Source: an uncultured Planctomycetales bacterium
GTDB taxonomy: Bacteria > Omnitrophota > Gorgyraeia > Gygaellales > Profunditerraquicolaceae
Direction of reading: 5' to 3'
Length of the DNA: 61,627 nt
Assembly: GCA_964354795.1 (NCBI GenBank)
Contig: CAYHBB010000005.1
Coordinates: 1-61,627 of the forward strand
Positions 2,464-59,493 of the stretch are shown piece after piece (positions within the stretch are counted from its first letter, which is position 1; the number at the start of each line of letters is the position of its first letter). The notes under the pieces were generated by a model. It ran no database searches and was not told the DNA's origin. It saw only the letters and a program-made list of their open reading frames with translations. The position numbers and the translations under genes were made by a program.

Positions 2464-2590
2464 TTGACACCCTGACACCCACTTGAGTTTTCCGGTCCTT
2501 GACACCCCCTGCAATTTTACGAACCGCTGATACCCGCATAATTTTCCGGAGCTTTGACACCCACTTGAGTTTTCCGGTCCTTTGACACCC
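2464..2590. repeat. Family A tandem repeat array, locus 1 (27/28-nt units)
   Basis: TGACAC(C/T)C octamers start at 2465, 2473, 2500, 2528, 2555 and 2583. The unit is TGACACCCACTTGAGTTTTCCGGTCC(T)T. The array fills the whole gap between rlmN and the SGNH gene. Confidence 0.9.
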
Positions 2591-12078: not shown

Positions 12079-12090
12079 GTTTACTCTCCT

Positions 12091-12133
12091 TTCACAGTAA
12101 GTGAAACACTGGCCTATCCTATAAGGCCAGGTG
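12091..12133 (-). promoter_or_regulatory. Family B leader element (hairpin 1 plus hairpin 2, abutting the SD)
   Basis: Minus-strand RNA: CACCTGGCCT-TATAGGAT-AGGCCAGTG, then TTTCAC-TTACT-GTGAAA, then GGAGAG. Confidence 0.7.
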
Positions 12134-12162
12134 TTAAAAATTCCTGTTTCTCGCGGGCTATA

Positions 12163-12253
12163 GTTAGCGGGCACCTGCCGAAGACAGGGTGGCTTGGCTT
12201 GTCCTGCGCGCGGCTTATGGCCGTGCTCGGATCAAGCCAAGCCACCCGCTAAC
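12163..12253. repeat. Family C inverted-repeat element, copy 1
   Basis: GTTAGCGGG...GGTGGCTTGGCTTG pairs with CAAGCCAAGCCACCCGCTAAC. A 60-nt core is identical to 59433-59492. Confidence 0.85.
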
Positions 12254-14248: not shown

Positions 14249-14267
14249 TCTTCCTCCTTAGTTGTTA

Positions 14268-14378
14268 GGTTATCAGTATATCGGAATATCAGTTGGCGGA
14301 ATATCAGGATAGCAGGTTTAGTTTTCTCTGATTCCCTGATATTCTGAACGCTGATTCTCTAATTCCCTGATAATCTGG
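14268..14378. repeat. Family D inverted-repeat element (TATCAG/CTGATA arms), copy 1
   Basis: The left arm carries repeated (A/T)ATCAG and the right arm repeated CTGAT(A/T). It is collinear with 39824-39928 (GGTTATCA..ATATCGG..ATATCAG....CTGATATTC...CTGATAATCTG). Confidence 0.8.
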
Positions 14379-14393
14379 CTTACATATTCTAAG

Positions 14394-15167
14394 CTACTTA
14401 TCCGGATGCTGTTGTTTAAAGGGAATCACCGGAGCCGTCCACGGCGTCTGCTGATTGATCACCGAGATCTCCAAAGGACAGACATTCTGCGGAACCGTAA
14501 GCGCGAATTTTACCGCATTTTCAATTGCCTCAGTAGTCATCAGACGCGATGTGTTAGAGGTAATCTCGCTTAGCTTCCCGGTTAAATCGGTATCCGTAAC
14601 TCCTGGCAAGATGGAAGTCACCTTTATTCCATGGTCGCGCAACTCCCAAAATAACCCCTTAGAAAAAGCGCGTAACCCCACCTTTAAAGAGCTATAAACA
14701 ATAAAATTCCTCGGAAGCGGATCGCACAAGGTCGAACCGGAAACCATGTTGATGATCGCTCCGGATTTGTTTTTGATCATATCGTTGATCACCAGCCGTA
14801 TCAAGCGCACATACCCCAGATAATTGGTATGCGCCAGCCTCTCAAAATCCTCAATGGGCTGCTCCTGAAACGGATATTGGGAAGATACCCCCGCATTATT
14901 GATCAGGATGTCTATCCTGCCGTATTTCTCCTTGGTTTTGTTGACCAAGTTCTCCAAATCCTCTAATTTTGTGACATCACAGACAACCGGCAAGACTTCG
15001 ACCTTATACTTTTTAGCGATCTCTTCCGCCGTTTCTTTAAGCGGACCTTCCTGGCGCGCAGCAATCACCAAATTTATCCCGAGGCCCGCAGCTGTGCATG
15101 CCAGAGCCTTACCGATCCCGCGGCTGGCACCGGTTATAATCGCTGTCTTTCCTTTTAAGTTTTCCAT
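14394..15167 (-). CDS. Short-chain dehydrogenase/reductase (candidate ketoreductase)
   Basis: TGASRGIG, NNAG, and the YSSLK catalytic Tyr-x3-Lys. Confidence 0.85.
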   Translation of the reverse strand: MENLKGKTAIITGASRGIGKALACTAAGLGINLVIAARQEGPLKETAEEIAKKYKVEVLPVVCDVTKLEDLENLVNKTKEKYGRIDILINNAGVSSQYPFQEQPIEDFERLAHTNYLGYVRLIRLVINDMIKNKSGAIINMVSGSTLCDPLPRNFIVYSSLKVGLRAFSKGLFWELRDHGIKVTSILPGVTDTDLTGKLSEITSNTSRLMTTEAIENAVKFALTVPQNVCPLEISVINQQTPWTAPVIPFKQQHPDK

Positions 15168-19434: not shown

Positions 19435-19445
19435 ATCCTACCTCC

Positions 19446-19489
19446 TTGCGCAGAAAGCGCAACACTGGCTTATCCTTTAAAGCCAGGTG
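19446..19489 (-). promoter_or_regulatory. Family B leader element (intercistronic, between CLF and the rSAM gene)
   Basis: Minus-strand RNA: CACCTGGCTT-TAAAGGAT-AAGCCAGTG, then TTGCGC-TTTCT-GCGCAA, then GGAGG, then 6 nt, then ATG. Confidence 0.75.
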
Positions 19490-19498
19490 CATTCATTA

Positions 19499-20728
19499 TT
19501 ATGCTTTTTCTACTACCAATACTGAATTTATCCCGCCTCTGCCGCGCGAAATGATCAGCGCTTTATTGATCTTATGCTCTCTGGCTTCCTTACCTACATA
19601 TAGCAGACCTTCTACAGCCGGGCTCTCCAGATTAATAGTCGGCGGAACCAAGCTGTGCTCCATGGCATGGATCGCAATGACCATATCTACAACTCCGCTG
19701 GCACCCAAAAGATTTCCAAACATGGACTTGGGGCAGCTTACAGGAATATCTTTTATGCGCGCGCCAAAGACGCTTCTTATGGCGTCAATCTCTGAATTAT
19801 CCCAGATATCTACAGCCAAACCATCCAAAGAAATGTAATCAATTTTATCGGGTGAAATCTTTGCCTCATCCAAAGCCATCCTGATCGCCCGGGCTAATTC
19901 TTTTCCGTCGCCAGCAGGATTGATCCTGTCCACTCCGTCGCAGGTAGTACCAAAACCGGTAATATACGCCAGGGATTTAGCGCTACGCGACTTGACACGA
20001 TCTAGGCCCTCCAACACTACGATTGCCGCGCCCTCACCTATTACAAAACCATTACGCTTTTTATCAAAAGGCCGGTAAGCTTCCTGTGGATGCGCGTTAT
20101 CTACAGAAAGCGCGCCATAGGTATTGCAGCATAATAAGGCATATGGCGTAACCGGCGCTTCCATGCCTCCGGCTAAGATCATGTTCAGCTTATTCTTTGC
20201 CAGAACTTTGCGCGCATAACCAAGGGCCATCAAAGAACTTGCCCGGTCAGATACAACTGTCTTAGAAAACCCCTTGATCCCGTAATAAATAGACACCTGG
20301 CCTTGAGGAGCAGCGGGAAACCAGGCAGAAGCCATGTAAGGAGAAACCCCCTCCCTGCCTTCCATGTACATATCACGCAATTCTGTCTCGGCATACAACC
20401 ATCCTCCAATAGCATTACCTAAAAATATACCCACTAGATTAGGGTCTTCTTTTTTAATATCGACCCCCGCATCCTGCAGAGCCAGCTCCGAGGCGATCAG
20501 AGCCATGTGCGAGAAAGCGTCGATCTTCTTCAAAAGCCTCTCAGAAATTGTAGAATACTTATCCAGGTCGTCGATTTGCCCCGCGATATGCGAAGGATAA
20601 AGGGATGCGTCAAAACGGGTGATCTCTTTGACAAAAGAGCGTCCGCTTTTAATATTCGCCCAGAACTGGCGTTTGCCTATTCCAGAGGGGGTGACTACGC
20701 CGACACCAGTGATTGCAATCTTGCTCAC
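19499..20728 (-). CDS. Ketosynthase beta / chain-length-factor-like subunit
   Basis: WFPAAPQGQVSIYYG is CLF-like. The active-site position reads VVSDRASS (no Cys, and Arg where CLFs carry Gln). There is no NAHG His motif. The GTG start overlaps the KS-alpha stop (GTGA). Confidence 0.75.
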   Translation of the reverse strand: MSKIAITGVGVVTPSGIGKRQFWANIKSGRSFVKEITRFDASLYPSHIAGQIDDLDKYSTISERLLKKIDAFSHMALIASELALQDAGVDIKKEDPNLVGIFLGNAIGGWLYAETELRDMYMEGREGVSPYMASAWFPAAPQGQVSIYYGIKGFSKTVVSDRASSLMALGYARKVLAKNKLNMILAGGMEAPVTPYALLCCNTYGALSVDNAHPQEAYRPFDKKRNGFVIGEGAAIVVLEGLDRVKSRSAKSLAYITGFGTTCDGVDRINPAGDGKELARAIRMALDEAKISPDKIDYISLDGLAVDIWDNSEIDAIRSVFGARIKDIPVSCPKSMFGNLLGASGVVDMVIAIHAMEHSLVPPTINLESPAVEGLLYVGKEAREHKINKALIISRGRGGINSVLVVEKA

Positions 20729-24007: not shown

Positions 24008-24021
24008 ATCTAGAGCTCTCC

Positions 24022-24065
24022 TTACGCAGAAAGCGTAACACTGGCCCATCCTTTAGGGCCAGGTG
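24022..24065 (-). promoter_or_regulatory. Family B leader element (first gene of the PKS-like operon)
   Basis: Minus-strand RNA: CACCTGGCCC-TAAAGGAT-GGGCCAGTG, then TTACGC-TTTCT-GCGTAA, then GGAGAG. Confidence 0.75.
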
Positions 24066-24085
24066 AAATCTTAGTTTAATTTAAT

Positions 24086-29472: not shown

Positions 29473-31137
29473 CTATTTGTTAAATACTTCTTTGAGTATG
29501 GTATTAGCAATGCTCTCTGCGAGAAGACGATTGCCTTTTCCTGTACAGTGACCGAAGTCGCCGCCGAACATATCATTAAAGTATTCTCGGTAATCGGTTT
29601 TCTTAAGAGCATCTTTAAATATCTTTTCGTTATCTACAAACATAATGCCTTCTGCATTACCTTGGAATATCCTCTTAAGCGTCTCTAAATTTCGCATGGG
29701 ATACTGCACACAAACATACGCTATACCTCTTTTGTCTAAGATCGCTTTAAGCTTATTATAATTGTCAGTTGTAATTGGATAATAGTAGCTTGATCTTAAT
29801 TCCTTGGCCTTTTTACCATATTCCCTAGCAAGCCTTAGGCTATCCATTTCTCCAAATAATAACTCTAGCGCTCCATATATCCTATCGTCTTTAGGGTCGA
29901 GTTCTAGAGCCTTTTTGAATAACTCCTCAGCCTCAAGAAATCTATTTTGGGCTTGATAAAACTTTCCCAGCCCAAAATATACCAACTCGTTTTTGGGGTT
30001 GAGCTCTATAGCCTTCTTAAATGACTCCTCAGTCTCAGGGAATCTACCCCAGCTTAGATAAAAATTTCCCAGCTCATAATATGCCCAATCGTCTTTAGGG
30101 TTAAGCTCTATAGCTTTCTTGAATAACACCTCAGCCTCAGAGAATCTGCCCTTGCGCTGATAAGAAATCCCTAGCCCAATATATGCCCACTCGTTATTAG
30201 GGTTGAGCTCTATGGCTCTCTTGAATAACTCCTCAGCCTCGGAGAATCTGCCCTTGCTTTTATAAAGCCTTCCCAGCCCAAGATATGCCCAATCGTTTGT
30301 GGGCTTAAGCTCTATAGCCTTCCTGAATAACTCCTCAGCCTCAAATAATCTACCCATGTTTTGATAAGAATCACCTAGCCCAAAATATACATAATCGTTT
30401 TTGGGATCGAGCTCTATGGCTTTCTTGAATAACTCCTCAGCCTCAGAGAATCTACCCTTGTTTTGATAAAGCTTTCCCAGCTCAATATATGCCCACTCGT
30501 TTTTGGGGTTGAGCTCTATAGCCTTACTGAACTTTAATAATGCTTCACTTGACGGAGCATCCTTGTCTTCTGCATAAACCTGTTGTAATTCGACTCTTTG
30601 AAGGAGAGGCTTAGGCTGTTTTGAATCTTTTAATTTGGTTACAATATGTAACCAAAGGAGCCTGCTTAATTTATAGGTTCTAAAAGACTTTAAAAAATTT
30701 ATAAACTTCGAATCAGAAATAGCCTCATAAGGCAGATGCGGACCCATGTCATTAATCCCCATCATAGTAATGACCATATCCGGATGGTATGTCTCGAGAT
30801 CAGATTCAAGCATGGATAATATAGCGGCTGTACTTGTTCCGATAATACCCTTGTCTATCACGCTGAATTTTATGCCGATATTGCGCTGATTGAGTATTTC
30901 TTCCAGAAAAAGCGGATACTGCCCTGCGGTGGTGGATTCACCCAGGCACATAATACGATAAGTCCCTTTTTTGCTGATAGAGGCCCTGTTGCTGTGCTCC
31001 TGGATTGACAACAATACAAACCCTCCCAGGCGTAATCCTATCTCAAGGATAACAACAGTCAAAAATAACCCGAATATTATCAGAGCTATTTTTTGCCAAA
31101 ACGAAGTTTTAGTTAGGGTTTGATTGTTTCGGCTCAT
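29473..31137 (-). CDS. Membrane-anchored SGNH hydrolase interrupted by a TPR array
   Basis: IMCLGESTTAG (block I), MMGINDM (block III), then about 8-9 TPRs (KAIELNPKN...AY..LG), then GGDFGHCT (block V, DxxH). Confidence 0.65.
   Translation of the reverse strand: MSRNNQTLTKTSFWQKIALIIFGLFLTVVILEIGLRLGGFVLLSIQEHSNRASISKKGTYRIMCLGESTTAGQYPLFLEEILNQRNIGIKFSVIDKGIIGTSTAAILSMLESDLETYHPDMVITMMGINDMGPHLPYEAISDSKFINFLKSFRTYKLSRLLWLHIVTKLKDSKQPKPLLQRVELQQVYAEDKDAPSSEALLKFSKAIELNPKNEWAYIELGKLYQNKGRFSEAEELFKKAIELDPKNDYVYFGLGDSYQNMGRLFEAEELFRKAIELKPTNDWAYLGLGRLYKSKGRFSEAEELFKRAIELNPNNEWAYIGLGISYQRKGRFSEAEVLFKKAIELNPKDDWAYYELGNFYLSWGRFPETEESFKKAIELNPKNELVYFGLGKFYQAQNRFLEAEELFKKALELDPKDDRIYGALELLFGEMDSLRLAREYGKKAKELRSSYYYPITTDNYNKLKAILDKRGIAYVCVQYPMRNLETLKRIFQGNAEGIMFVDNEKIFKDALKKTDYREYFNDMFGGDFGHCTGKGNRLLAESIANTILKEVFNK
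29899..30545. repeat. 102-nt periodic DNA repeats encoding the TPR units
   Basis: (G/A)AGCTCTATAGC-like anchors occur at 29899, 30001, 30103, 30205, 30307, 30409 and 30511, an exact 102-nt spacing. Confidence 0.9.
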
Positions 31138-35446: not shown

Positions 35447-36829
35447 TCACTTTCCTATACAAAATTTAGAAAATATCCTATCTAATAAACCCTCTGAAAA
35501 CTTCTTTCCCAATAATTCGTCTAAATATCCCAGGCTGTCTTTAACATCCTGGGCAATAAGCTCTATAGACGCTTTATTATCCACTGAACCGGCAGATTGC
35601 GCAATAAGTTTTTGGGCTTCCCGCAGGCAGGAGACATGCCTGAGGTTTCCCACCACCACCGATTCCGGGCCGATGACCTTACCTTTATATACCAACTCTA
35701 CGATTTTATCTTCCAAAAGATTTATATTCCTGGCTTTCTTTGCCGAAAGAGAGATCGTATGAATAAACTGCTTAGTGATCTTTTCCCTTTCAATCTTTTG
35801 TTTTAAATCCATCTTATTGATAATGGCGATGGCCTGTTTGCCCTTTAACGATCTAATAATATCCCTGTCCTGCGCTGATAATTTTCTGCTTCCGTCAAAA
35901 AGGATTACAACGATATCCGCCTGGGCAATATGCTTCTTTGAGCGCTGGACAGCTTTCTTCTCGACTAAACCCCGCGGATTAAGCATCCCTGCGGTATCCA
36001 CGATGCGGACCGGAATACCTTTTATGTCGATAATCTCCTCGATAGCATCGCGAGTGGTGCCGGCAACATGCGTGACAATAGAACGCTCATGCTTAAGCAG
36101 GGCATTCAATAACGAGGACTTGCCCACATTAGGCTTACCGCAGATAACCACGTATATCCCTTCACGAAAGATCCTGCCGCGCCTTGAGCTTGCCAGCATG
36201 GCTTTCAGTTTACCGTCGCACTCTCTTAAGCCTGCACCAACGCTATTAAAATCTACAGTGTCGTTTGCATCTTCGGGAAAATCAATGCTCGCTTCAAGTT
36301 GAGTAAGGATATCCAAAAGAACATCCCTGATTTTATTAAGTTCTGCCGACAGCGCCCCTTTTAGCTGCCCAAGGCCGATCCTTAAGGCAGAATCAGTCTT
36401 GGCGCGGATAATATCCAGAACCGCCTCGGCCTGGGCTAAATCAATCCTGCCATTTAAAAACGCCCGCTTGGTGAATTCACCCGGCTCAGCTAAACGCGCT
36501 CCGTTTACCAAAGCTAGGTCCAAAACATCCCGCAAAGCCACTATCCCGCCGTGGCAATTGATTTCCACTACGTCTTCTTTAGTATAGGAGCGGGGAGCGC
36601 GCATCACCGTAAGGATCACCTCATCGATTATTTCCCCGCCGTTCTTTATTAAACCGTAATGGATAGTGTAGCTCTTAAAATCCGATGGCTTTATCTTTCC
36701 TTTAGAAAAAAATATTTTATCTGTAATTGCCAACGCACCCTTGCCGCTTAAGCGCACGATCCCGATCCCGCCAACGCCCACAGGCGTAGAAATCGCAGCG
36801 ATGGTATCATCGATATTATACTTATGCAT
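35447..36829 (-). CDS. mnmE: tRNA modification GTPase MnmE
   Basis: [13 protein letters not shown]1 motif, DTAG, and the C-terminal CIGK. Confidence 0.9.
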
Positions 36830-38213
36830 TTCTCAGCTCTCCCACCACAAATAGAGACCCTGTCCCAAGGATAAGGTCGTCTTTTGCAGCAAGCTGTATT
36901 GCTTCCTGCTTCGCCTCTTTTACGCTGCTAGTTAAAAGATAATTCCTGCCTTTAAAATATCGGCTTAAAACCTTGGGGTTTTCTGCTCGCGGATTATCGG
37001 CGCAGGTCAAGATAACCTGATCAGCTAAACTATAAAGCTCATTACAAATCCCTTTAATATCTTTGTCCTTGGATATTCCTAGCACTAGGATCAATTTCTT
37101 ATATTTAAAATTGTTCCTGATGGTTTCTTTTAATGCTTTTACGGAAGCGATATTCTGAGCTCCGTCGAGCACAACCAAAGGATTCCTGGACACAACCTCA
37201 AACCTGCCCGGCCATTGAGTATTCAAGAGCCCTCTTCGTATTATCTTTTGGCTTATCCCTGACTTAAGCGCCTTGACTGCGCTAACCGCAACCGCAGCGT
37301 TTATCCGCTGATGCTTTCCAAACAAAGGAAGCTTTATCCCCATTAAAGGCTTATTTATTTCCTGTAACACTACCCCGACTTCTTTACATCTATTACGGAT
37401 TACAATTGCCGCTTCTTTTTCCTGCGGCGCACTTATCACAATCGCCTGACACCCACTTGAGCTTTCCGGTCCTTTGACACCCACTTGAGCTTTCCGGTCC
37501 TTTGACACCCATTCGAGCTTTCCGGTCCACTGATACCCTTTAATAATCCCCGCCTTCTCCCTTGCGATCTCTCGCAAGGTTTTCCCCAGCTTCTGGGTAT
37601 GCTCGTAGCTGATGGGCGTGATCACGCTTACCAGGGCATTGGCGGTATTAGTCGCATCCAGCCTTCCGCCTAAACCAGTCTCCAGCACCGCGAAATCCGT
37701 CTTCTGCTCCTTAAAATACACAAAGGCTAAAGTAGTATACACTTCAAAAAATGACAGCGGCCCGTATTTTGAGCCTTGATTATACCTATCTATCTCCGGC
37801 TTTAATTTGCTAACTATCCTAGCCAATTCAAGCTTGGCAACCATCCCCTCAAACGGATCTGACACTTTGACACCAACTTCAGCTTTCCGGACTTTTGACA
37901 CCAACTTCAGCTTTCCGGCTTTTTGACACTCTAATATACGAATTCTCTCCCGAAAGTCGGATAAATGCGGAGAGGTATAAAGCCCGACCCTGAACCCCGC
38001 TTCCCGCAATATATAGGTAATGAAGGCACAAGTCGAACCCTTGCCCTTAGTGCCGGCTACATGGATACAACGCAAATGGCTTTGAGGATTGCCGATGAGA
38101 GAAAGAAAATCTTTAATGCGCTCCAGCTTCAGGGATTGTTTATAAGGATAGTCGATGAATTTTTCGTAATTAACAAAACTCTCGAGGTATTTTATTGTCT
38201 GAGGGTAGGTCAT
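36822..38213 (-). CDS. folC: Folylpolyglutamate synthase / dihydrofolate synthase carrying two repeat-encoded insertions
   Basis: VAGTKGKGST P-loop, ETGLGGRLDATN, IAREKAGIIK. At 463 aa it is about 45 aa longer than I recall for typical FolC. The excess coincides with the family A arrays. Confidence 0.85.
   Translation of the reverse strand: MTYPQTIKYLESFVNYEKFIDYPYKQSLKLERIKDFLSLIGNPQSHLRCIHVAGTKGKGSTCAFITYILREAGFRVGLYTSPHLSDFRERIRILECQKAGKLKLVSKVRKAEVGVKVSDPFEGMVAKLELARIVSKLKPEIDRYNQGSKYGPLSFFEVYTTLAFVYFKEQKTDFAVLETGLGGRLDATNTANALVSVITPISYEHTQKLGKTLREIAREKAGIIKGYQWTGKLEWVSKDRKAQVGVKGPESSSGCQAIVISAPQEKEAAIVIRNRCKEVGVVLQEINKPLMGIKLPLFGKHQRINAAVAVSAVKALKSGISQKIIRRGLLNTQWPGRFEVVSRNPLVVLDGAQNIASVKALKETIRNNFKYKKLILVLGISKDKDIKGICNELYSLADQVILTCADNPRAENPKVLSRYFKGRNYLLTSSVKEAKQEAIQLAAKDDLILGTGSLFVVGELRNA
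37447..37538. repeat. Family A tandem repeat array, locus 2 (inside folC)
   Basis: Three 28-nt units start at 37447, 37475 and 37503, plus a terminal octamer TGATACCC at 37531. The three units total 84 nt, or 28 codons. Confidence 0.9.
37860..37931. repeat. Family A variant array, locus 3 (inside folC)
   Basis: TGACAC octamers at 37860, 37868, 37896 and 37924. Two 28-nt units read TGACACCAACTTCAGCTTTCCGG(A/C)(C/T)TTT. Confidence 0.9.
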
Positions 38214-39823: not shown

Positions 39824-39928
39824 GGTTATCATCATATCGGGATATCAGTAGGCAGAATATTAGGTATCAGCGGATCAGGTTAAATCTGATACCCTGATTT
39901 TCTGATATTCTGCCTACTGATAATCTGA
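39824..39928. repeat. Family D inverted-repeat element, copy 2
   Basis: A 17-bp perfect arm, ATCAGTAGGCAGAATAT, pairs with ATATTCTGCCTACTGAT. Flanking TATCAG/CTGATA repeats are collinear with 14268-14378. Confidence 0.85.
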
Positions 39929-39945
39929 TTTTCTGATACCCACAT

Positions 39946-40647
39946 TTACTTATTAAACCTGAAGTTAACCAAGTCCGCATCCTGCATCACGTATTCTTTT
40001 TGCTCCAAGCGCTGTTTGCCTGCCTGCTTGGCCTGGTTCTCTCCTCCGCATTTTATAAAATCATCAAAGCTGATGATCTCCGCCCGGATAAAACCCTGCT
40101 GGATATCCGAGTGTATGGCACCTGCGGCTTCCCAGGCAGTAGTGCCCTTGCGGATCAGCCAGGCCCGGGTCTCTTTTTCTCCGGTAGTAAAAAAGCTGAT
40201 GTACCCGCCCTCGCGCACTGCGCGGCTAAGCAAAGCGTTCGGCTCTTCAGCCTCCGACTTCTCGGAGGTGATCACCGGCCGGCTAGTGAGCATCCCGTAC
40301 TTGATCAGCGCTTTCTTTTCCTCTTCGCTTAAGGCCACATTACAAACTAGCTGTTCCTTCTCAAGTGAGACCTTTACTTTATTCAACAGCGTTTTTTCCG
40401 CCTCATCCGCCGAGCGGGAAAACCGGGTCTCCGCAAATTCCAAATCTTTTAGAATCAAATCTGCGGCAGAATCTCTTGCCACTAGTATTGCGTCGGAATC
40501 AAGCGCCGCATCTTCGGCAACCGCCTCGATCTGTATATAAGTCTTTTTCTTGGCTTTGGTAATGGAGTCCACCTGGTCAAGGCGGGCGTCCTTAATATTA
40601 TGCTTGCCCGGGTTTATCTCGGGAATAGAAATAATACTGATCTTCAT
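39946..40647 (-). CDS. YchF/OLA1-like protein lacking the P-loop G domain
   Basis: The C-terminal half matches YchF (ETRAWLIRKGTTAWEAAGAIHSDIQQGFIRAEII...VNFRFN). The N-terminus (MKISIISIPEINPGKHN) has no GxxGxGKS and the protein is only 233 aa. Confidence 0.6.
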   Translation of the reverse strand: MKISIISIPEINPGKHNIKDARLDQVDSITKAKKKTYIQIEAVAEDAALDSDAILVARDSAADLILKDLEFAETRFSRSADEAEKTLLNKVKVSLEKEQLVCNVALSEEEKKALIKYGMLTSRPVITSEKSEAEEPNALLSRAVREGGYISFFTTGEKETRAWLIRKGTTAWEAAGAIHSDIQQGFIRAEIISFDDFIKCGGENQAKQAGKQRLEQKEYVMQDADLVNFRFNK

Positions 40648-42611: not shown

Positions 42612-42890
42612 GGCAAGACTCCTTTCGCAGAAAGCGAAACACCAACCTTTCCTATAAGGTTGGGTGTTACAGTAAGCTACGCCCTATAAAGCCAGGTGTA
42701 AGCAGTAAGCAAAACACCAACTTTTCCTATAAAGTTGGGTGTTGCAGTAAACTACACCCCAGCTATAAGGTATGCTGGGTGTGTCCTTTTTAGGACTACA
42801 CCCCAGCTATAAGGTATGCTGGGTGTGTCCTTTTTAGGACAAAACACCGGCCTTTCCTATAAAGCCAGGTGTTTGCTTTAAAGGTAAGAG
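42612..42890 (-). ncRNA. Long structured leader of the EF-G2-like gene (array of family B hairpins)
   Basis: Hairpins lie at 42623-42639, 42639-42667, 42714-42742, 42844-42872 and in the two units at 42752-42839. Three have AGGA in the loop in the mRNA sense. Confidence 0.6.
42752..42839. repeat. Exact 44-nt direct tandem duplication (two hairpins per unit)
   Basis: CTACACCCCAGCTATAAGGTATGCTGGGTGTGTCCTTTTTAGGA occurs at 42752-42795 and again at 42796-42839. Confidence 0.95.
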
Positions 42891-42927: not shown

Positions 42928-43028
42928 GGCTAAATTGGCGTACACCCGGCCTTATGGGAAAGGCCGGTGTGTGGTCCAGAAAGGACACACCCGCTGAACC
43001 TTTAAAGCGGGGTGTAGCTTTCTGCCAC

Positions 43029-53718: not shown

Positions 53719-56064
53719 TTATTTTACCTTCTCAAAAACCACCCTTTGCTTGATTTTTTTCGCCAGGCCCTCGTAAAACTTTTTAAATTCCGCGTACTCG
53801 CTTTCGAGGATAGCCTGTTTCTTAAACACCGTATCCTGCCTGAAAAACAAAAGATTATTCTTAAAACTGTACTCTACGCTCACACCCATCCAAGGGCTAT
53901 CCTCGGATATATTGCCGGGAATAAATTTAGCTGTATAAGTTTTTGGCACAGCGATCTCAAAAATCGTTTCCTTCTTATCTAAGACGCTGAAATCCAATGC
54001 ATAAAACCGTTTATCTTTAGCGACCAACGCTGTGTCAAGGCCAGCCAGCTGCGGCATAAGGCGCAAGCTACCGGCAACGGTAAAATATTCCGGGCCGGAA
54101 AAAGAGTATTTCAGCTCCACCGGCTTATTCAGGTCATTAAGATTAGCGATAGCGTAGTCTTTAAGCGTGGCTCCGATAGAAAATTCCTGGATCCTTTCTT
54201 TTAATTGCGCCTCGATCAGCTCCGGCTGGGTATAAAGCAGCCAATAGCGTTGACCCTGATCATAAATCCCGTAGGTAAAAATATCTTTCTTTGCCAGAAT
54301 AGTCTCATCATCATTGATGCTGATGCGTGTGGATTGTCTGACCAGATTGTGCTCTGGCTCATAAAGCGGCGTAGTCTCTATACGGAATTTATCCTCTTGG
54401 CAGATGAATACCGTGCGCGCCTGATCGCCAGCCGGGAGATCTGCGAAAGAACAGGTCTGGGCCGTGGGATCAAGAAAAATGATCCTGTCATTTAGCAATA
54501 CGCTTGCAATACAGTGGTCGAAAAGCATCGCCGGAAAATCCGGGTTCAGGTTGTAGTAATCTTTAGTGGGGATAAGCACCGGCCAGGCCTTAAAGCCGGC
54601 ATCTTTTAACATAGTTACCAATAATATCGCCTGGTCTTTACAATCGCCGTATTTATTACGAAATATATCCGCTGCCTGATGCGGCTCAAATCCCGCCTGT
54701 CCGTATTCCACCGCCACATAGCGGATATCTTTGGCGCAAAAATTGTAAATGGAACGGACTTTTTCCTCATCAGTCTTAAGGCCGCGGATCAATTGTTGCA
54801 CCTTGTCTTTTATAGCGGCATCCGCCTGGATTTTATCCTTAGCTAGCTTCCACCACCAATCGTATAACTCCTGCCACTCTTTAAAAGAAGACAAAATCAC
54901 GGTGGGAGTGATCTCTACCACAGGAGGCATATCCGCTTCGCTGATTATTTGAGGAATGTCTTTGAACTTCCAACGCAAAGTGACGATGCCATCTTTTTCC
55001 TCTTTCTCAGGAGTAAGCTTAGCTCCAAAAGTATTATACCGCTCATTAATGATCTTAAGGTTAGCGGGATTTTCTTTAGGAAAGCTCACGATAAAATCCG
55101 CGGAAATTATCGGATCAGCTGACTGCAGCGAATAAGGGACCCCATAATCCTTCTTATTTACCAGCTGGTTGCGGTAAACTTTAAGCTTATACTCCACGCT
55201 TACGCCATCGGCAATCTCAGGGAATGAAATAATAAAAACGCGGGCGTTGCTGTAGAGGGGAAAATTAAGATACTTGGATACGTCGCGAATATGACGCGCG
55301 CCCACATCTACCACCGTACCGTCGCGCTTGATGGTACGGGCGTATTCCAGCTCGACTTTCTCGTAAGTGGAATCATACTCGATCTTGGCCTCGGAAAAAT
55401 CTTCTTTACCGCGCTCATTAAGGATCTTTACCAGATAATGCAAGCGTGAAACTTCGGTATTTTCCCGGGTGACCTCGATACTTTCATTACACAGAAGGAT
55501 CAATGCCCCTGCCTGCGGATAAAGCTCCTCGCTTGGCGCATTGGCGATTGCCTGATACGACTCCGGGCTCAGCTCCCTGATATTGCGACCGACAGCCAAC
55601 CGCTCTATAGCCTCAATACGCTCTGCGGCAAGGAAAGCAAATTCTTTTTCTTTTATCTTCTTGTAAGCAGCAAGAGCAGGATCAAAAAGATTTAACTTTT
55701 CGCAAGTCAATCCCTTATAATACAGACATTCGTCGTCAGAACTGTCGATCTTGTCAAGGACCTCCAGCGCGTCGGTAAACTCTTGGCTGCGATAAAATGA
55801 TATCCCCAAAAACTTTTTCGCCTGAGGCAGGCCGCTCTTGGCAAAACACTCTGTGGCTTCTTTAAACGCGCCATGGCCAAGATACAGTTTACCGAGGTCA
55901 AAATAAAGCTGATCAACATTCTGCCCCTTTATTATCTCCTGCTTGTAACCGGCAAGCGCCTCCTGGTAATATTGTTCTGATTTTCTAGCCAGCTGCTGCG
56001 CTTCAGTGCCAGCATTCGCCCCGCATCCGGCTATAAACAACGCCACTAAAATGACCCCTGACAC
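53719..56064 (-). CDS. TPR + DUF3857-like + transglutaminase-like domain lipoprotein
   Basis: Lipobox LFIAGC, and YGDCKDQAILLVTML transglutaminase core Cys. The GTG start lies inside a family A repeat, so the start is uncertain. Confidence 0.65.
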   Translation of the reverse strand: MSGVILVALFIAGCGANAGTEAQQLARKSEQYYQEALAGYKQEIIKGQNVDQLYFDLGKLYLGHGAFKEATECFAKSGLPQAKKFLGISFYRSQEFTDALEVLDKIDSSDDECLYYKGLTCEKLNLFDPALAAYKKIKEKEFAFLAAERIEAIERLAVGRNIRELSPESYQAIANAPSEELYPQAGALILLCNESIEVTRENTEVSRLHYLVKILNERGKEDFSEAKIEYDSTYEKVELEYARTIKRDGTVVDVGARHIRDVSKYLNFPLYSNARVFIISFPEIADGVSVEYKLKVYRNQLVNKKDYGVPYSLQSADPIISADFIVSFPKENPANLKIINERYNTFGAKLTPEKEEKDGIVTLRWKFKDIPQIISEADMPPVVEITPTVILSSFKEWQELYDWWWKLAKDKIQADAAIKDKVQQLIRGLKTDEEKVRSIYNFCAKDIRYVAVEYGQAGFEPHQAADIFRNKYGDCKDQAILLVTMLKDAGFKAWPVLIPTKDYYNLNPDFPAMLFDHCIASVLLNDRIIFLDPTAQTCSFADLPAGDQARTVFICQEDKFRIETTPLYEPEHNLVRQSTRISINDDETILAKKDIFTYGIYDQGQRYWLLYTQPELIEAQLKERIQEFSIGATLKDYAIANLNDLNKPVELKYSFSGPEYFTVAGSLRLMPQLAGLDTALVAKDKRFYALDFSVLDKKETIFEIAVPKTYTAKFIPGNISEDSPWMGVSVEYSFKNNLLFFRQDTVFKKQAILESEYAEFKKFYEGLAKKIKQRVVFEKVK

Positions 56065-56122
56065 CCACTTGAGCTTTCCGGTCCATTGACACCCACTTGA
56101 GCTTTCCGGTCCGCTGACACCC
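56059..56122. repeat. Family A tandem repeat array, locus 4
   Basis: 28-nt units start at 56059 and 56087, with a terminal octamer at 56115. The array fills the gap between the hypD stop and the next start. Confidence 0.9.
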
Positions 56123-57213
56123 TATCTATGATATTTATAGTAAGCATTACACGCTCCTTCATGCGAAACCATGCACGGGCCCACCGGATTATCCGGAGTG
56201 CAGGCCCTGGCAAACAGCGGGCAAAGATCAGGCCGGATCAGGCCTTTTAAAACTTCCCCGCAAAGGCATTTCTTTATCTTTGCGTCATACTTTGTGACCC
56301 GCTTAAAAACAAATTTCTTCGAGGCGTCGAACCCGGAAAATTCTTGTCTTAACGTCAGGCCGCTTTTAGGGATCTTTCCCAGTCCACGCCAGGAAGCACC
56401 TGCAGGCTGAAAAACCCGATTGATAATCTTTACGCCTTTAGGATTCCCTTGTTTCTTTACTACCCGGATGTATTGATTATCCACCCGCGGCTTGTTTTGT
56501 GCCAATTGACGCATCAATAGATAAATACCTTCCAAAATATCCAGCGGCTCAAATCCAGCGACACAGCTGCCGATACGGTATTTCTTCACCAGGAATTCGT
56601 AAGGCCGGGTGCCGATGATGCTGGAGACATGTCCGGGGCAAAGAAAACCGTCGAGCTTAAGCCTTTTATCCCGGCATAAATATTCCATAGCCGGAGTGAT
56701 CAATTTTAAAGCGCACGAAAATGTAAGGTTGGGGATCTTTTCTTTCTTGGCGGCAAGGATAGTCAGAGCGATGGTGGGAATAGTAGTCTCAAACCCCACC
56801 GCCAGAAATACTACCGACTTATCAGGGTTAGCCCGGGCCACACTGATGCTCTCAAGCGGCGAATATACCACCCGGATACTTCCTGAACGAGCCCTCTCCT
56901 TTTCCAGCGTAGAAAACGTACCCGGAATACGCAGCATATCCCCGAAGGTAAGGATGAGCGCGTCTTTTCTTTTGGCCAAAGCAATGGCCGCGTCGATATA
57001 CTCCTGGCTGCTTACGCACACCGGGCATCCCGGCCCGGCGATAAGCCGTAGGTTTGCGGGAAGCATCTTATCCAGCCCGAAGCGGAAGAAATTCTGAGTA
57101 TGTGTGCCGCAGACCTCCATGATATTCACCTGCCTAGGAGGCGTAACTGCGCGGATACCTTCCGCAACTTTCCTGACTAACTTTATATCGCGGTATTCGT
57201 CAACGAATCTCAT
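56122..57213 (-). CDS. hypD: Hydrogenase maturation protein HypD
   Basis: MEVCGTHT, GPGCPVCV, FETT, and the C-terminal Cys cluster PVGPCMVSHEGAC. Confidence 0.9.
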   Translation of the reverse strand: MRFVDEYRDIKLVRKVAEGIRAVTPPRQVNIMEVCGTHTQNFFRFGLDKMLPANLRLIAGPGCPVCVSSQEYIDAAIALAKRKDALILTFGDMLRIPGTFSTLEKERARSGSIRVVYSPLESISVARANPDKSVVFLAVGFETTIPTIALTILAAKKEKIPNLTFSCALKLITPAMEYLCRDKRLKLDGFLCPGHVSSIIGTRPYEFLVKKYRIGSCVAGFEPLDILEGIYLLMRQLAQNKPRVDNQYIRVVKKQGNPKGVKIINRVFQPAGASWRGLGKIPKSGLTLRQEFSGFDASKKFVFKRVTKYDAKIKKCLCGEVLKGLIRPDLCPLFARACTPDNPVGPCMVSHEGACNAYYKYHR

Positions 57214-57504: not shown

Positions 57505-58587
57505 TTACCTCATGCCTGCGACCACTGCCTGGCCAAGAGACAGGCCGGAATCATTACAGGACAATTTTTTGTTTATAAAGACCTTAAACCCTTCCTTATA
57601 TAATAAATCCAAACTCAGGCGTAGCAAAAGGTTATTTTGGAACACTCCGCCCGACAAAACCACATTGCTGATCTTAAATTTTCTTTTTAAGCGGATGCAA
57701 ACCTCAGTGATCATCTGGGCCACAGCCAGATGAAAGCGATAGGCGATCTCAGGTTTTACCTCTTTGGCTTTCAGGTCTTTTATTATCTGCCGGAATACTG
57801 GCGTCGGGTCAATGATATAGCTTCCTTTGTCTTTTATGACTTTGAATTTATAGCTTATGGATGACGCCTCAAAGTTAAAAGCTTTTTTTCCAAGCTCAAT
57901 AGCCAATTCCGCCTCAAAATTCGCCTGGCATTTCCCCAATATCAATACCGCCGCCGCATCAAATAATCTTCCCATGCTGCTGCTTAAGGGAGAGTTAAAT
58001 GCTTTTGCCTGCACCCTTTTCACCAAGCCCCACTCTTTTCTTTTAACTAAAGCGGGCCTATCCAAACCTAAAGCTGCCAACAGCCTCCATGGCTCAAGTA
58101 TGGCTTTTTCTCCTCCGATAAGCGCAACCTCTTTTAAATGCGCGGCTCGGATAAAGTTTTTATAATCGCAAACCAAAAACTCCGCTCCCCAAAGGCTGCC
58201 GTCGCGGCCTAAGCCGGTTCCGTCAAAAGCTACGCCTATCACTAACTTGTTCTTCAGCCCGTTCTCAGCCATGCAGCCGGCGATATGCGCATGGTGATGC
58301 TGCACTTCTGATACGCTGATCCCCTGATTCTCTGATACGCATTCACGCGCATATTTACTTGAGAAATACTCCGGATGTAAATCGCAGGCGACCATTCTTG
58401 GCTTTTTCTTCAAAAAGCATTTCGCATCTTTTTCGAATGCCGAAAGGTCCCTTGGGTCGCTTAAGTCTTTGTGCACTGCGCTGATATAGGCGGTTTTATT
58501 CTGGGCAAAGCAAACGGTATTCTTGACCTGACTTCCCAGGGCCAAAATCGAACGCTTGAGAGAAACCGGAAGGGCGATTTTTATCAC
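57505..58587 (-). CDS. hypF: HypF C-terminal (Kae1/YrdC-associated) half only, lacking the acylphosphatase and zinc-finger domains
   Basis: LALGSQVKNTVCF, VQHHHAHIAGCMAENGL, GVAFDGTGLGRDGSLWGAEF. The GTG start at 58587 has GGAGAT 5 nt upstream and overlaps the preceding stop (GTGA). Confidence 0.7.
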   Translation of the reverse strand: MIKIALPVSLKRSILALGSQVKNTVCFAQNKTAYISAVHKDLSDPRDLSAFEKDAKCFLKKKPRMVACDLHPEYFSSKYARECVSENQGISVSEVQHHHAHIAGCMAENGLKNKLVIGVAFDGTGLGRDGSLWGAEFLVCDYKNFIRAAHLKEVALIGGEKAILEPWRLLAALGLDRPALVKRKEWGLVKRVQAKAFNSPLSSSMGRLFDAAAVLILGKCQANFEAELAIELGKKAFNFEASSISYKFKVIKDKGSYIIDPTPVFRQIIKDLKAKEVKPEIAYRFHLAVAQMITEVCIRLKRKFKISNVVLSGGVFQNNLLLRLSLDLLYKEGFKVFINKKLSCNDSGLSLGQAVVAGMR

Positions 58588-59405
58588 AATATCTCCAAAT
58601 GCAATATTCCGTCCAAACGAAAAATACGCTCTTCGCAGCGCATACAGCAATACCCCACCAGATAATCGCGCTTATTATCCTGCTTGAGCTCCTTAGGGAT
58701 GATCTCCCGCTCTGAAAGGTCTCCTCCTGTCGAGGGAAGATAACGTATGCGTATCCTCACTCCCAAATCTATGGCTTCCTGTATTTGCGCCAGCTTCTGG
58801 GTATTGATGTCTTCCAAAAGTTTCGGGTTAATAGTGAACAAGTGCGAGAAGCTGGTAAAATCCGAGATCCCCTTACTAAGAAGCAGGGCCTTAAGCCGGA
58901 AAAATACTTCCAAAGTCATCTCCACGTCTGAGAATGCCCGGTGCGCCTGCTGGGTCTTGATCCCCAAGCTATCCGAGACAAACCATAGCGCGTAACGCTC
59001 TAATCCCGGAAGCAGGCGGCGGGACATCTTCAGCGCATCCACAACCACAACATTTTCCAAATGCGACCGGCCCAAAAGCGTCAGCTCATTATTTAAAAAC
59101 TCCATATCGAATCCCGCATTGTAAGAACACAAACAGCTATCCTTGATAAACTTCAAGAATTTCGGCATCACTGTCTTCATATCCGCAGCATCCTGCAACA
59201 TTTCTGCTGATATGCGGTTGACCTTGTACGCTGCCTCCGAAATCTCGCGATGAGGGTTGACTAATTTCTGAAAAGTCGCCAAGCGCTGACTACCTTTAAA
59301 GCGCACAGCCGCGATCTCCACGATCCTGTCCCCCGACGCCGGATCCAACCCGGTAGTCTCGGTATCAAAAATCGTAAATTCTACATCATTAATGTGCTGT
59401 GTCAT
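58584..59405 (-). CDS. DEDDh (DnaQ-like) 3'-5' exonuclease fused to a C-terminal WYL domain
   Basis: Exo I FDTETTG, Exo II YNAGFDMEFL, Exo III HRAFSDV. The C-terminus, RIRIRYLPSTGG...REIIPKEL...DYLVGYC...RIFRLDGI, is a WYL pattern. Confidence 0.7.
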   Translation of the reverse strand: MTQHINDVEFTIFDTETTGLDPASGDRIVEIAAVRFKGSQRLATFQKLVNPHREISEAAYKVNRISAEMLQDAADMKTVMPKFLKFIKDSCLCSYNAGFDMEFLNNELTLLGRSHLENVVVVDALKMSRRLLPGLERYALWFVSDSLGIKTQQAHRAFSDVEMTLEVFFRLKALLLSKGISDFTSFSHLFTINPKLLEDINTQKLAQIQEAIDLGVRIRIRYLPSTGGDLSEREIIPKELKQDNKRDYLVGYCCMRCEERIFRLDGILHLEIL

Positions 59406-59417
59406 ATTTGTCTATTG

Positions 59418-59493
59418 TTTAGCGGGTCCTGCCTTGGCTTGTCCTGCGCGCGGCTTATGGCCGTGCTCGGATCAAGCCAAGCCACCCGCTAAA
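59418..59493. repeat. Family C inverted-repeat element, copy 2
   Basis: TTTAGCGGGT..CTTGGCTTG pairs with CAAGCCAAG..ACCCGCTAAA. The core is identical to the copy at 12193-12252. Confidence 0.85.

Follow-up and report, generated by a model that had tools for sequence, protein, structure and literature searches.

The question raised by this locus is how tandem repeats whose unit of 28 nucleotides (nt) is not a multiple of three can be carried inside an intact housekeeping gene. The window, that is, the whole stretch of 61,627 nt from contig CAYHBB010000005.1 of an uncultured bacterium placed in the phylum Omnitrophota, contains the gene folC, which codes for dihydrofolate synthase/folylpolyglutamate synthase. 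An earlier note on this DNA had claimed that two arrays of a 28-nt unit lie in frame within folC. The claim is confirmed by Tandem Repeats Finder, by the open reading frame (ORF) at 36822..38213, by the match to the family TIGR01499 and by structure matches, and the peptides quoted in the note are exactly those of the 463-residue product. Judged from the sequence, the arrays are best read as in-frame, presumably translated copies of a dispersed repeat; in an apparently functional FolC they occupy two surface loops whose structure is permissive.

The product of the host gene matches TIGR01499 over the full length of the family with E = 1.6e-98 and 330.8 bits, the curated cut-off being 162.65. 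Solved FolC/FPGS structures (1o5z, 2vor, 1fgs and 1w78) match it by sequence with E-values from 2e-56 to 1e-40. A Foldseek search with the predicted structure retrieved 2vor, 1o5z and 1w78 with TM-scores of 0.80-0.85 (normalised to the target) and E-values of 1e-30 to 1e-33. The protein is therefore above the family cut-off and has the Mur-ligase fold. All conserved FolC columns in the ortholog alignment are retained. No second folC-like gene is present in the 61,627-nt window beyond the one at 36822..38213.

Tandem Repeats Finder reports a period of 28 nt at 37866-37929 (site 1, 2.3 copies, 94% matches) and at 37447-37528 (site 2, 2.9 copies, 96% matches). With up to three mismatches allowed, the 28-mer is matched six times in the window and not once in any of 100 shuffles. 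Site 1 encodes residues ~96-118 (CQKAGKLKLVSKVRKAEVGVKVS), flanked by RERIRILE and DPFEGM, and site 2 encodes residues ~227-256 (YQWTGKLEWVSKDRKAQVGVKGPESSSGCQ), flanked by EKAGIIK and AIVISAPQ. Both arrays come directly after conserved FolC segments, RERIRIL at site 1 and EKAGIIK at site 2, as had been stated. In the gene orientation, site 1 reads TGTCA, two 28-nt units, AAGTGTCA and GAT, while site 2 reads GGGTATCAG, three 28-nt units and GGCG. The 28-mer is composed of an octamer (sense TGTCAAAG, or TGTCAGNN at the array ends) and a 20-nt core, GACCGGAAAGCTCAAGTGGG; it is a higher-order unit of an octamer repeat. It lacks terminal inverted repeats and does not form a palindrome.

The way in which the reading frame is kept differs between the two sites. 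Site 2 consists of 3 x 28 = 84 nt, and successive units are read in different frames, just as the earlier note had it. Its proposal that triplication restores the frame holds at site 2 and fails at site 1, which stays in frame through 28 + 8 = 36 nt and in which a third unit would give a stop. The variant unit at site 1 contains GCTGAAG, and its two copies read as CTG AAG and GCT GAA; on this reading of the sequence a third copy would read AGC TGA, so that triplication is closed at site 1 in the window genome. The site-1 array has stops in two of the sense frames. The canonical unit is free of stop codons in all frames of the sense strand, while its antisense strand has stops in all three, so that arrays can persist in genes only in the sense orientation. 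All arrays of the 28-mer in the window share one orientation. Nearly all genes of the window are on the minus strand, and the GC skew of the plus strand is -0.04 to -0.16; since the minus strand is G-rich throughout, it is probably the leading strand.

At the nucleic acid level the two arrays appear featureless. RNA folding of both folC arrays with their flanks gave no structure beyond that of shuffled sequences (z = -0.16 and -0.28), and interpretations as a riboswitch, an attenuator or a hairpin were dropped. The antisense of the octamer, CTTTGACA, includes a -35-like TTGACA; a promoter or terminator scan of the folC arrays gave no match, and an internal promoter was also discarded. A CRISPR array was rejected, as the units adjoin directly with a start-to-start spacing of 28 and no spacers, and an intein or intron was rejected on size and absence of structure. 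A protein search of 5.8 billion sequences with the three-frame translation of the array, a very short query, returned nothing that passed the E-value threshold.

The AlphaFold2 model of the window FolC, built from a 62-sequence alignment, has a mean predicted local distance difference test (pLDDT) value of 85.1 and a predicted TM-score (pTM) of 0.87. Only the segments 100-118 and 235-247 have pLDDT values below 50; secondary structure is lacking from residue 95 to 123 and from 224 to 257. The site-1 insert follows the strand after the loop SPHLSDFRERI, and the site-2 insert separates the helix that ends in EKAGIIK from the strand that comes after it. The protein is 36 residues longer than that of the closest short allele, P0004 (427 residues), with 12 of these at site 1 and 24 at site 2. 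The AlphaFold2 model of this natural short allele has the same order of helices and strands, and its pLDDT falls below 50 at residues 99-102 only. The two inserts are thus predicted to be disordered loops that leave the rest of the fold unchanged. This agrees with the surface-loop expectation of the earlier note, as modelled with the inserts and in the short allele. The insert peptides are hydrophilic and rich in Lys, Gly, Ser and Gln. When the protein was compared by HMMER with FolC of T. maritima, L. casei and E. coli, residues ~96-124 were unmatched and gaps were required after GIIK; in sequence alignments, FolC structures from other phyla have no counterpart of the insert segments.

It is important to compare the arrays with those of close relatives. 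The closest FolC orthologs in the databases show 78-81% identity (BLASTP), and their syntenic contigs were aligned as DNA. The expansion at site 1 is present in the window and in P0002 and absent from P0003 and P0004. At site 2 the window, P0003 and P0005 have the array, and P0002 and P0004 lack it; at the level of contigs, the orthologous three-unit array is found in L002, L003 and L023 and is absent in L004 and L006. The empty sites are not clean. Site 1 of L002 and L004 (P0003 and P0004) retains one degenerate unit, TATCA GCGTAGCGGGAAATCTAAGCGGGTATC, and site 2 of P0004 holds a heptamer array, (ATCAAGG)x3. The description of the arrays as insertions stands in so far as they are extra to solved FolC proteins of other phyla; they are not fresh insertions. 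Across the orthologs site 1 contains one, two or three units. Compared with the empty orthologs, it is longer by 36 nt (28 + 8) in the window and by 57 nt in L006 and P0002 (three units in L006). At site 2 the window and P0003 have three 28-mers each and are 72 nt longer than P0004. The differences between close folC alleles of 36, 57 or 72 nt are all multiples of three.

The site-2 arrays of the window and of L002/P0003 also share a detail of their history. Unit 1 has TCGA in both, while units 2 and 3 have TCAA; all three units have AAGCTC in the window and AAATTC in L002/P0003. The private TCGA in the first unit of both shows that the arrays are orthologous, and the difference common to all three units shows that they evolve in concert. 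The three-unit array has been retained across ~20% protein divergence. Similar arrays and an intact folC are found in independent assemblies from other samples, L002 and L023 (both JGI), L003 (Logan) and L006 (ENA), which makes an assembly artefact unlikely.

The clearest evidence comes from a comparison of genes with a spacer. The spacer array downstream of hypD has two units in the window and three in the metagenome contig L007, whose flanks are ~99% identical, so that the two differ by 28 nt. The spacer has changed by a whole unit and folC alleles by multiples of three, which argues for whole-unit change combined with selection that removes frame-breaking states in genes. Head-to-tail copies, whole-unit copy differences between relatives and dispersal over four loci of the window are all features of variable number tandem repeats (VNTR).

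We give a probability of about 60% to the explanation that the folC arrays are slippage-prone, dispersed long-unit simple sequence repeats (SSRs) which occupy permissive loops, are kept in frame by purifying selection and are copied by microhomology. The 28-mer may have originated when the 20-nt core was trapped between octamers, and octamer and core would then have been amplified together as a higher-order unit. Units would be gained and lost by replication slippage or by unequal exchange between flanking octamers. The identical core may have reached unlinked loci by copying, with the octamers serving as microhomology (template switching or ectopic conversion), and no dedicated transposase would be needed. 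Selection would retain in genes only net lengths divisible by three. On this view the arrays would be no adaptation of FolC; they would be passengers, neutral or slightly harmful, that persist only where the frame stays open and the enzyme works. As the units are stop-free and hydrophilic in all sense frames, they would survive in genes wherever the protein tolerates a floppy loop.

Long-unit SSRs of prokaryotes are known with units of 5-11 nt, the heptamers being the commonest class, and slippage has been proposed as their source (PMC4679880, PMC4692102). Genome-specific dispersed families include TAACTGA in Beggiatoaceae, GGGAATC in Xanthomonas, GGGGA(T/C)T in Nostoc and the cyanobacterial STRR heptamers; the known families are mainly intergenic and under-represented in coding regions, and TAACTGA has stops in all forward frames (PMC4679880, PMC4692102). 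The repeats of the Omnitrophota, described below, resemble these families in their head-to-tail units of 7-8 nt, typically in ~4 copies, in a genome-specific unit used at many loci, in their frequent position just upstream of start codons or between co-directional genes, and in occasional inverted pairs that form hairpins. However, the Omnitrophota units are stop-free on the sense strand and lie in frame in the middle of housekeeping enzyme genes, at orthologous hot spots across the phylum, and in the window lineage the unit grew to 28 nt (octamer plus 20-nt core). In a limited literature search, no earlier account came up of non-triplet repeats that occupy in-frame hot spots of housekeeping enzymes throughout a phylum, and nothing specific on repeats of Omnitrophota.

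The family of the 28-mer is found at four unlinked loci in the window, two in folC and two in spacers. The features are collected in Table 1.

Table 1. Position of folC, its two arrays and related repeats in the window.
Feature	Position	Strand	Description
folC (dihydrofolate synthase / folylpolyglutamate synthase)	36822..38213	minus	463 aa, intact ORF; TIGR01499 and structure matches
Site-2 array	37447..37538	minus	Units 37447-37474, 37475-37502, 37503-37530 (sense AAGGACCGGAAAGCTCAAGTGGGTGTCA) and octamer 37531-37538 (sense GGTATCAG)
Site-1 array	37860..37929	minus	Octamer 37860-37867, variant units 37868-37895 and 37896-37923 (sense AAAGTCCGGAAAGCTGAAGTTGGTGTCA), partial unit 37924-37929
28-mer family spacer array	2465..2590	minus	About four 27-28-nt units and octamers; outer two identical, inner two diverged
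28-mer family spacer array	56059..56122	minus	Two units and octamer; occupies all the space between the hypD stop (56122-56124) and a lipoprotein-like ORF of 781 aa
Family B octamer element	39825..39950		Inverted arrays of (NNTATCAG)n that form a long hairpin between ychF and purH
In-frame octamer array	58308..58338	minus	About 4 units, sense CGTATCAG-type, in the HypF C-terminal-half gene 57505..58650

The two spacer arrays were also detected by Tandem Repeats Finder, at 2473-2590 and 56058-56122. The first of them fills the entire spacer between the rlmN stop (2591-2593) and the lipoprotein-type start (MVVCLLAAGLFFGC) of a GDSL/TesA-like gene; in the second, the sole in-frame start codon of the 781-residue ORF, a GTG at 56064, is located inside the last unit. 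RlmN, the TesA-like protein and HypD were identified by profile search. The mycobacterial interspersed repetitive units (MIRU), a VNTR family of mycobacteria, have units of 46-101 bp in operon spacers, are co-oriented with the genes, abut or overlap stop and start codons, and vary between strains. The loci 2465-2590 and 56059-56122 behave likewise. However, MIRU are intergenic, while the window unit has 28 nt and is also found inside genes.

Octamer arrays also occur in the window. The hairpin in the ychF-purH spacer folds as RNA with -48.6 kcal/mol (z = -7.6). Of this element the close relatives L004 and L002 have just one and two octamers, and the window has about seven with an inverted arm, which shows growth in place from a seed. 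A second inverted (NNTATCAG) octamer element, in the spacer at 14255-14395, also forms a long hairpin (z = -4.2). The octamer array in the HypF gene encodes ..ARE[CVSENQGISVSE]VQHHHAH... This gene matches only positions 382-740 of the HypF profile and has a DnaQ-like exonuclease ORF immediately upstream of it, so that HypF seems to be truncated or split here.

Outside the window, a metagenome scan with the exact 28-mer pattern found two loci, L007 and L008. On L008 the lpxK gene (941-2071) carries about three units of the 28-mer family and octamers in frame (…SRGYKRVSKDRKMEVGVSEPESSSGCQQSGKLKGCQGVSEMGDEAY…), and its product has a net 14 extra residues in the region SRGYKR...GDEPY compared with LpxK of Aquifex. 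Scans of the genome collection, in which the host lineage is not represented, with the exact 28-mer core and with the unit junctions gave only single chance matches in unrelated taxa.

Other repeats of the window are of different kinds. Dispersed palindromes of ~40-55 nt, of the type AACACTGGCC.ATCCTATAAGGCCAGGTGTT, are found at 12086-12151, 19442-19499, 24018-24074, 42619-42880 and 42986-43023, with a perfect tandem duplication of 44 nt at 42751-42838 among them; their appearance is that of intergenic hairpins or terminators. A 63-nt pair at 12190-12252 and 59430-59492 is 98% identical over a distance of 47 kb and has an internal palindrome (TGGCTTGGCTTG...CAAGCCAAGCCA). The 102-nt tandem repeat with 6.3 copies at 29884-30525, in the ORF 29473..31137 (minus strand), is ordinary 34-residue TPR periodicity with PilW/MamA-like matches.

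The same two sites of folC were compared across the phylum in 82 other Omnitrophota genes (80 species-representative loci with flanks, L021 and L022). The 120 best FolC homologs have 419-494 residues, apart from the contig-truncated P0005 (387 residues), and the 22 of them with a taxon name are all labelled Omnitrophota or Omnitrophica. Periodic peptides such as CQSVKVSKCQ, TPNSQLPTPN, SHKVTKSQSHR and NPKSEIRNPK are found at these two sites in many homologs, while the shortest loops resemble RILPGKEKTE. The DNA of both sites in relatives often consists of lineage-specific tandem heptamers or octamers, typically in ~4 copies. For example, L021 has (TGTCAAAG)x4 at both sites and L029 has (CGACAAC)x4 with (GGTCACCA)x4. 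Of the 70 genes scored, 22 show clear tandem periodicity of 7 or 8 nt, or its double, at site 1, and 21 show it at site 2. Some sites contain palindromes: L022 has the same hairpin at both sites in the form TGTCAA-[26-nt hairpin]-TCAAAG, a GC-rich palindrome between direct octamers, and similar palindromes between direct repeats occur in L041, L077 and L031. At site 1 of L092, L094, L100 and L103, a long MITE-like palindrome (MITE, miniature inverted-repeat transposable element) with CATTGCGAGGAGCGAAGCGACGAAGCAATC-type sequence lies in frame and adds 20-50 residues.

The folC gene is uninterrupted in 81 of these 82 genomes. The exception, L046 (10001-11350), has a single in-frame TAG, with FK*KK in place of the FKEKK of its relatives. 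This codon is not at the repeat sites, and a sequencing error, a pseudogene or recoding could account for it. A separate difference concerns a segment of ~25-35 residues (…TNDGFNVKGIFGEYPGLK…), which is common in most other Omnitrophota FolC proteins and is missing from the window clade (window residues ~285-300, alignment columns 301-335). In L021 this segment (TNDGFNVKGIFGEYPGLK) carries a third in-frame heptamer array, (TTACCGC)x5.

The density of such arrays was assessed in a census of 70 loci (1.0 Mb) for periods of 6-9 nt, or doubled, with at least 2.8 copies. There are 48 arrays in folC, or 0.49 per kb, compared with 38 elsewhere, or 0.042 per kb, so that they are ~12 times denser in folC than in its flanks. 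Many of the arrays outside folC lie in frame at one site of mnmE or one site of purH. The fixed MnmE site, HYGWIV[array]IDEVLLTVMR, is occupied by in-frame arrays of 7 or 8 nt in L029, L039, L043, L054, L057, L070, L080, L081, L084, L087, L094 and L099, and the purH site in L042, L047, L094 and L096. The mnmE gene of the window has no array at this hot spot.

The arrays extend beyond the phylum. An exact scan of species-representative genomes for 2.6 units of TGTCAARG found at least 119 loci (L104-L222), where by our own estimate ~1 would be expected for a random 21-mer, a null that is unfair to tandem repeats. The matches listed are from Nitrospirota, Bacteroidales, Planctomycetota, Lentisphaeria, Omnitrophota, Nitrospinota and others, often several per genome. 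Among these listed matches, 31 of 130 arrays are located inside long ORFs on the sense strand, and eight host ORFs were identified: TrpE, MnmE (at the same hot spot), IspD, homoserine dehydrogenase, QueC, LeuC, HisS and DeoC. Also among them, an inverted array is found nearby in 21 cases, and some Nitrospirota have the complete element, direct and inverted octamers together, translated (...SVKVSKCQSVKDSDTLTLGNSDTS...).

Several of these observations weigh against passive slippage in permissive loops as a full account. The identical 20-nt core at four unlinked loci of the window and in lpxK of another contig could not have arisen by slippage alone. Throughout the phylum the two loops of folC act as hot spots. 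By contrast, the adjacent ychF and EF-G-like genes have constant lengths and no arrays in the window, L002, L004, L021 and L022 (within 1-3 residues in L021 and L022), and permissiveness alone offers no obvious explanation for this. The two folC sites share their unit in 6 of 15 genomes, compared with 2.2% of between-genome pairs, and in L070 and L080 folC and mnmE use the same unit; this sharing points to some homogenising or targeting process. Phylogenetic signal in the sharing is weak: species pairs that share a unit have a median FolC identity of 0.63, compared with 0.62 for those that do not, and no pair is 75% or more identical, which suits vertical turnover and recurrent re-seeding alike. 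The sequence GTCA occurs on the gene-sense strand in 20 of 74 of the heptamer and octamer units of Omnitrophota, ~9 times the naive expectation, while TGAC occurs in none of the 74. With the recurrence of (TGTCAARG)n across phyla, this could mean that the motif itself matters. Finally, the presumed translation of the inserts is deduced from frame conservation alone.

The spread of the identical core, the occupation of the same loops across the phylum and the recurrence of GTCA are the reason for which a sizeable probability is kept on a transposition-like or active process, and a smaller one on function. The boldest form of such a process is tentative, and we consider it rather unlikely: Omnitrophota and several other phyla may carry self-propagating, coding-compatible short-unit repeats, installed and homogenised at hot spots by an active, sequence-directed process. 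If this were true, the folC arrays would be the footprint of a new mobile or repair-associated system and not of passive slippage. The candidates would be templated repeat addition, microhomology-driven copy-paste or an unrecognised enzyme, with GTCA/TGTCAARG as the recognition sequence and with the 28-mer and the palindrome-bearing versions as derivatives. The hot spots would then include loops of the essential enzymes FolC, MnmE, PurH, LpxK, TrpE, IspD and HisS.

A more conventional mobile origin is also unlikely, though it deserves attention. The folC arrays could be copies of a small non-autonomous element of the MITE, repetitive extragenic palindrome (REP) or Rickettsia palindromic element (RPE) type, with the octamers as target site or target duplications and an enzyme acting in trans. 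Such an element would explain why near-identical 28-mers are found both at the four unlinked window loci and in the lpxK gene of L008, as well as the repeat units common to different sites within one genome. It would fit the GC-rich palindromes bracketed by direct octamers at folC sites of L022, L041, L077 and L031 and the long MITE-like palindromes of L092, L094, L100 and L103. The single orientation of all window arrays is expected for strand-specific, single-strand transposition; it is equally explained by the stop codons of the antisense strand and by the location of nearly all genes on the leading strand. However, the 28-mer has neither a palindrome nor terminal inverted repeats, its copy number moves by whole tandem units, the empty sites keep one unit or a heptamer array, and arrays grow in place from a seed. 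No transposase or RAYT gene turned up, although none was searched for and most of the window is unannotated.

The RPE are reportedly, after Ogata and co-workers in 2000, dispersed short repeats that lie in frame in housekeeping genes and are translated and tolerated at the protein surface. They are single palindromic elements of ~100-150 bp. The earlier note had likened the folC arrays to them, and the likeness is real in its outcome: repeat DNA lies in frame within housekeeping genes and, in folC too, is presumably translated as part of the protein. It does not extend to their nature, as the folC arrays are tandem and non-palindromic, without significant fold, vary by whole units and belong to a host among the Omnitrophota, not the Rickettsiales. 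Their sequence is apparently unrelated to RPE, the unit having only chance single matches in other taxa. The palindrome-containing inserts of L022, L041 and L077 and the Nitrospirota elements are nearer to RPE than the window arrays. The 28-mer likewise lacks the palindrome of REP/BIME (RAYT) elements, for which no RAYT gene was sought; octamer-bracketed palindromes do exist at folC sites of relatives.

It is doubtful that the arrays are functional, either as a contingency (phase-variation) switch or through the octamer as a recognition motif of a DNA- or RNA-binding factor in a regulatory network. Contingency loci are classically built from non-triplet units within an ORF, where gain or loss of a single unit (7, 8 or 28 nt here) shifts the frame, and the hot spots in folC, mnmE and purH are conserved across the phylum. 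In Haemophilus, Neisseria and Campylobacter, such loci belong to surface or accessory genes; their units are of 1-5 nt, and both ON and OFF alleles are found. The folC arrays share with these the intragenic tandem repeat with a non-triplet unit (28 and 8 nt, or 7 or 8 nt in relatives). They differ in that their hosts are housekeeping enzymes, in which an OFF state should be costly, and in that close relatives have only in-frame alleles; the 81 of 82 other folC genes in frame argue against a switch, the lone exception being a point TAG away from the arrays. For a regulatory motif one may cite the intergenic arrays that directly precede start codons, one of them supplying a GTG start, the enrichment of GTCA in the units, the recurrence of (TGTCAARG)n across phyla and the regulatory role proposed for the upstream heptamers (TAACTGA) of Beggiatoaceae (PMC4679880). 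However, the unit sequence varies widely between genomes at one and the same site, which does not suit a binding motif, and neither the absence of RNA structure in the folC arrays nor the stability of the three-unit site-2 array over ~20% protein divergence favours a function.

It is very improbable that the segments are missing from the mature protein, whether through removal from the RNA or through ribosome bypass as in phage T4 gene 60 and the mitochondrial byp elements. This idea has no direct support and is motivated solely by the oddity of repeat DNA inside an enzyme gene. Conservation of the frame would then be needless. In fact every allele has a net length divisible by three, and at site 1 the combination of 28 + 8 avoids the TGA frame; RNA structure and intron-like or intein-like size or features are absent. 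An assembly artefact or a decaying pseudogene can be set aside almost entirely, since, although short-read assemblers may miscount tandem repeats, each array is shorter than a typical read, the identical three-unit arrays of L002, L003 and L023 come from different samples that were assembled independently, all conserved FolC columns are retained and the fold is confidently predicted.

The arrays should have practical consequences: they will inflate the apparent divergence of proteins and confuse ortholog alignment and gene calling in metagenome-assembled genomes, and they could serve as strain-typing markers. Repeats with non-triplet units are expected to be purged from essential genes, yet units of 7, 8 and 28 nt persist in frame at the same loops throughout the phylum. 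The Omnitrophota thus provide a natural map of the insertion-tolerant loops in FolC, MnmE, PurH and LpxK, and a natural experiment on selection for the reading frame, in which the lengths of 84, 36, 57 and 72 nt in genes stand against 28 nt in a spacer.

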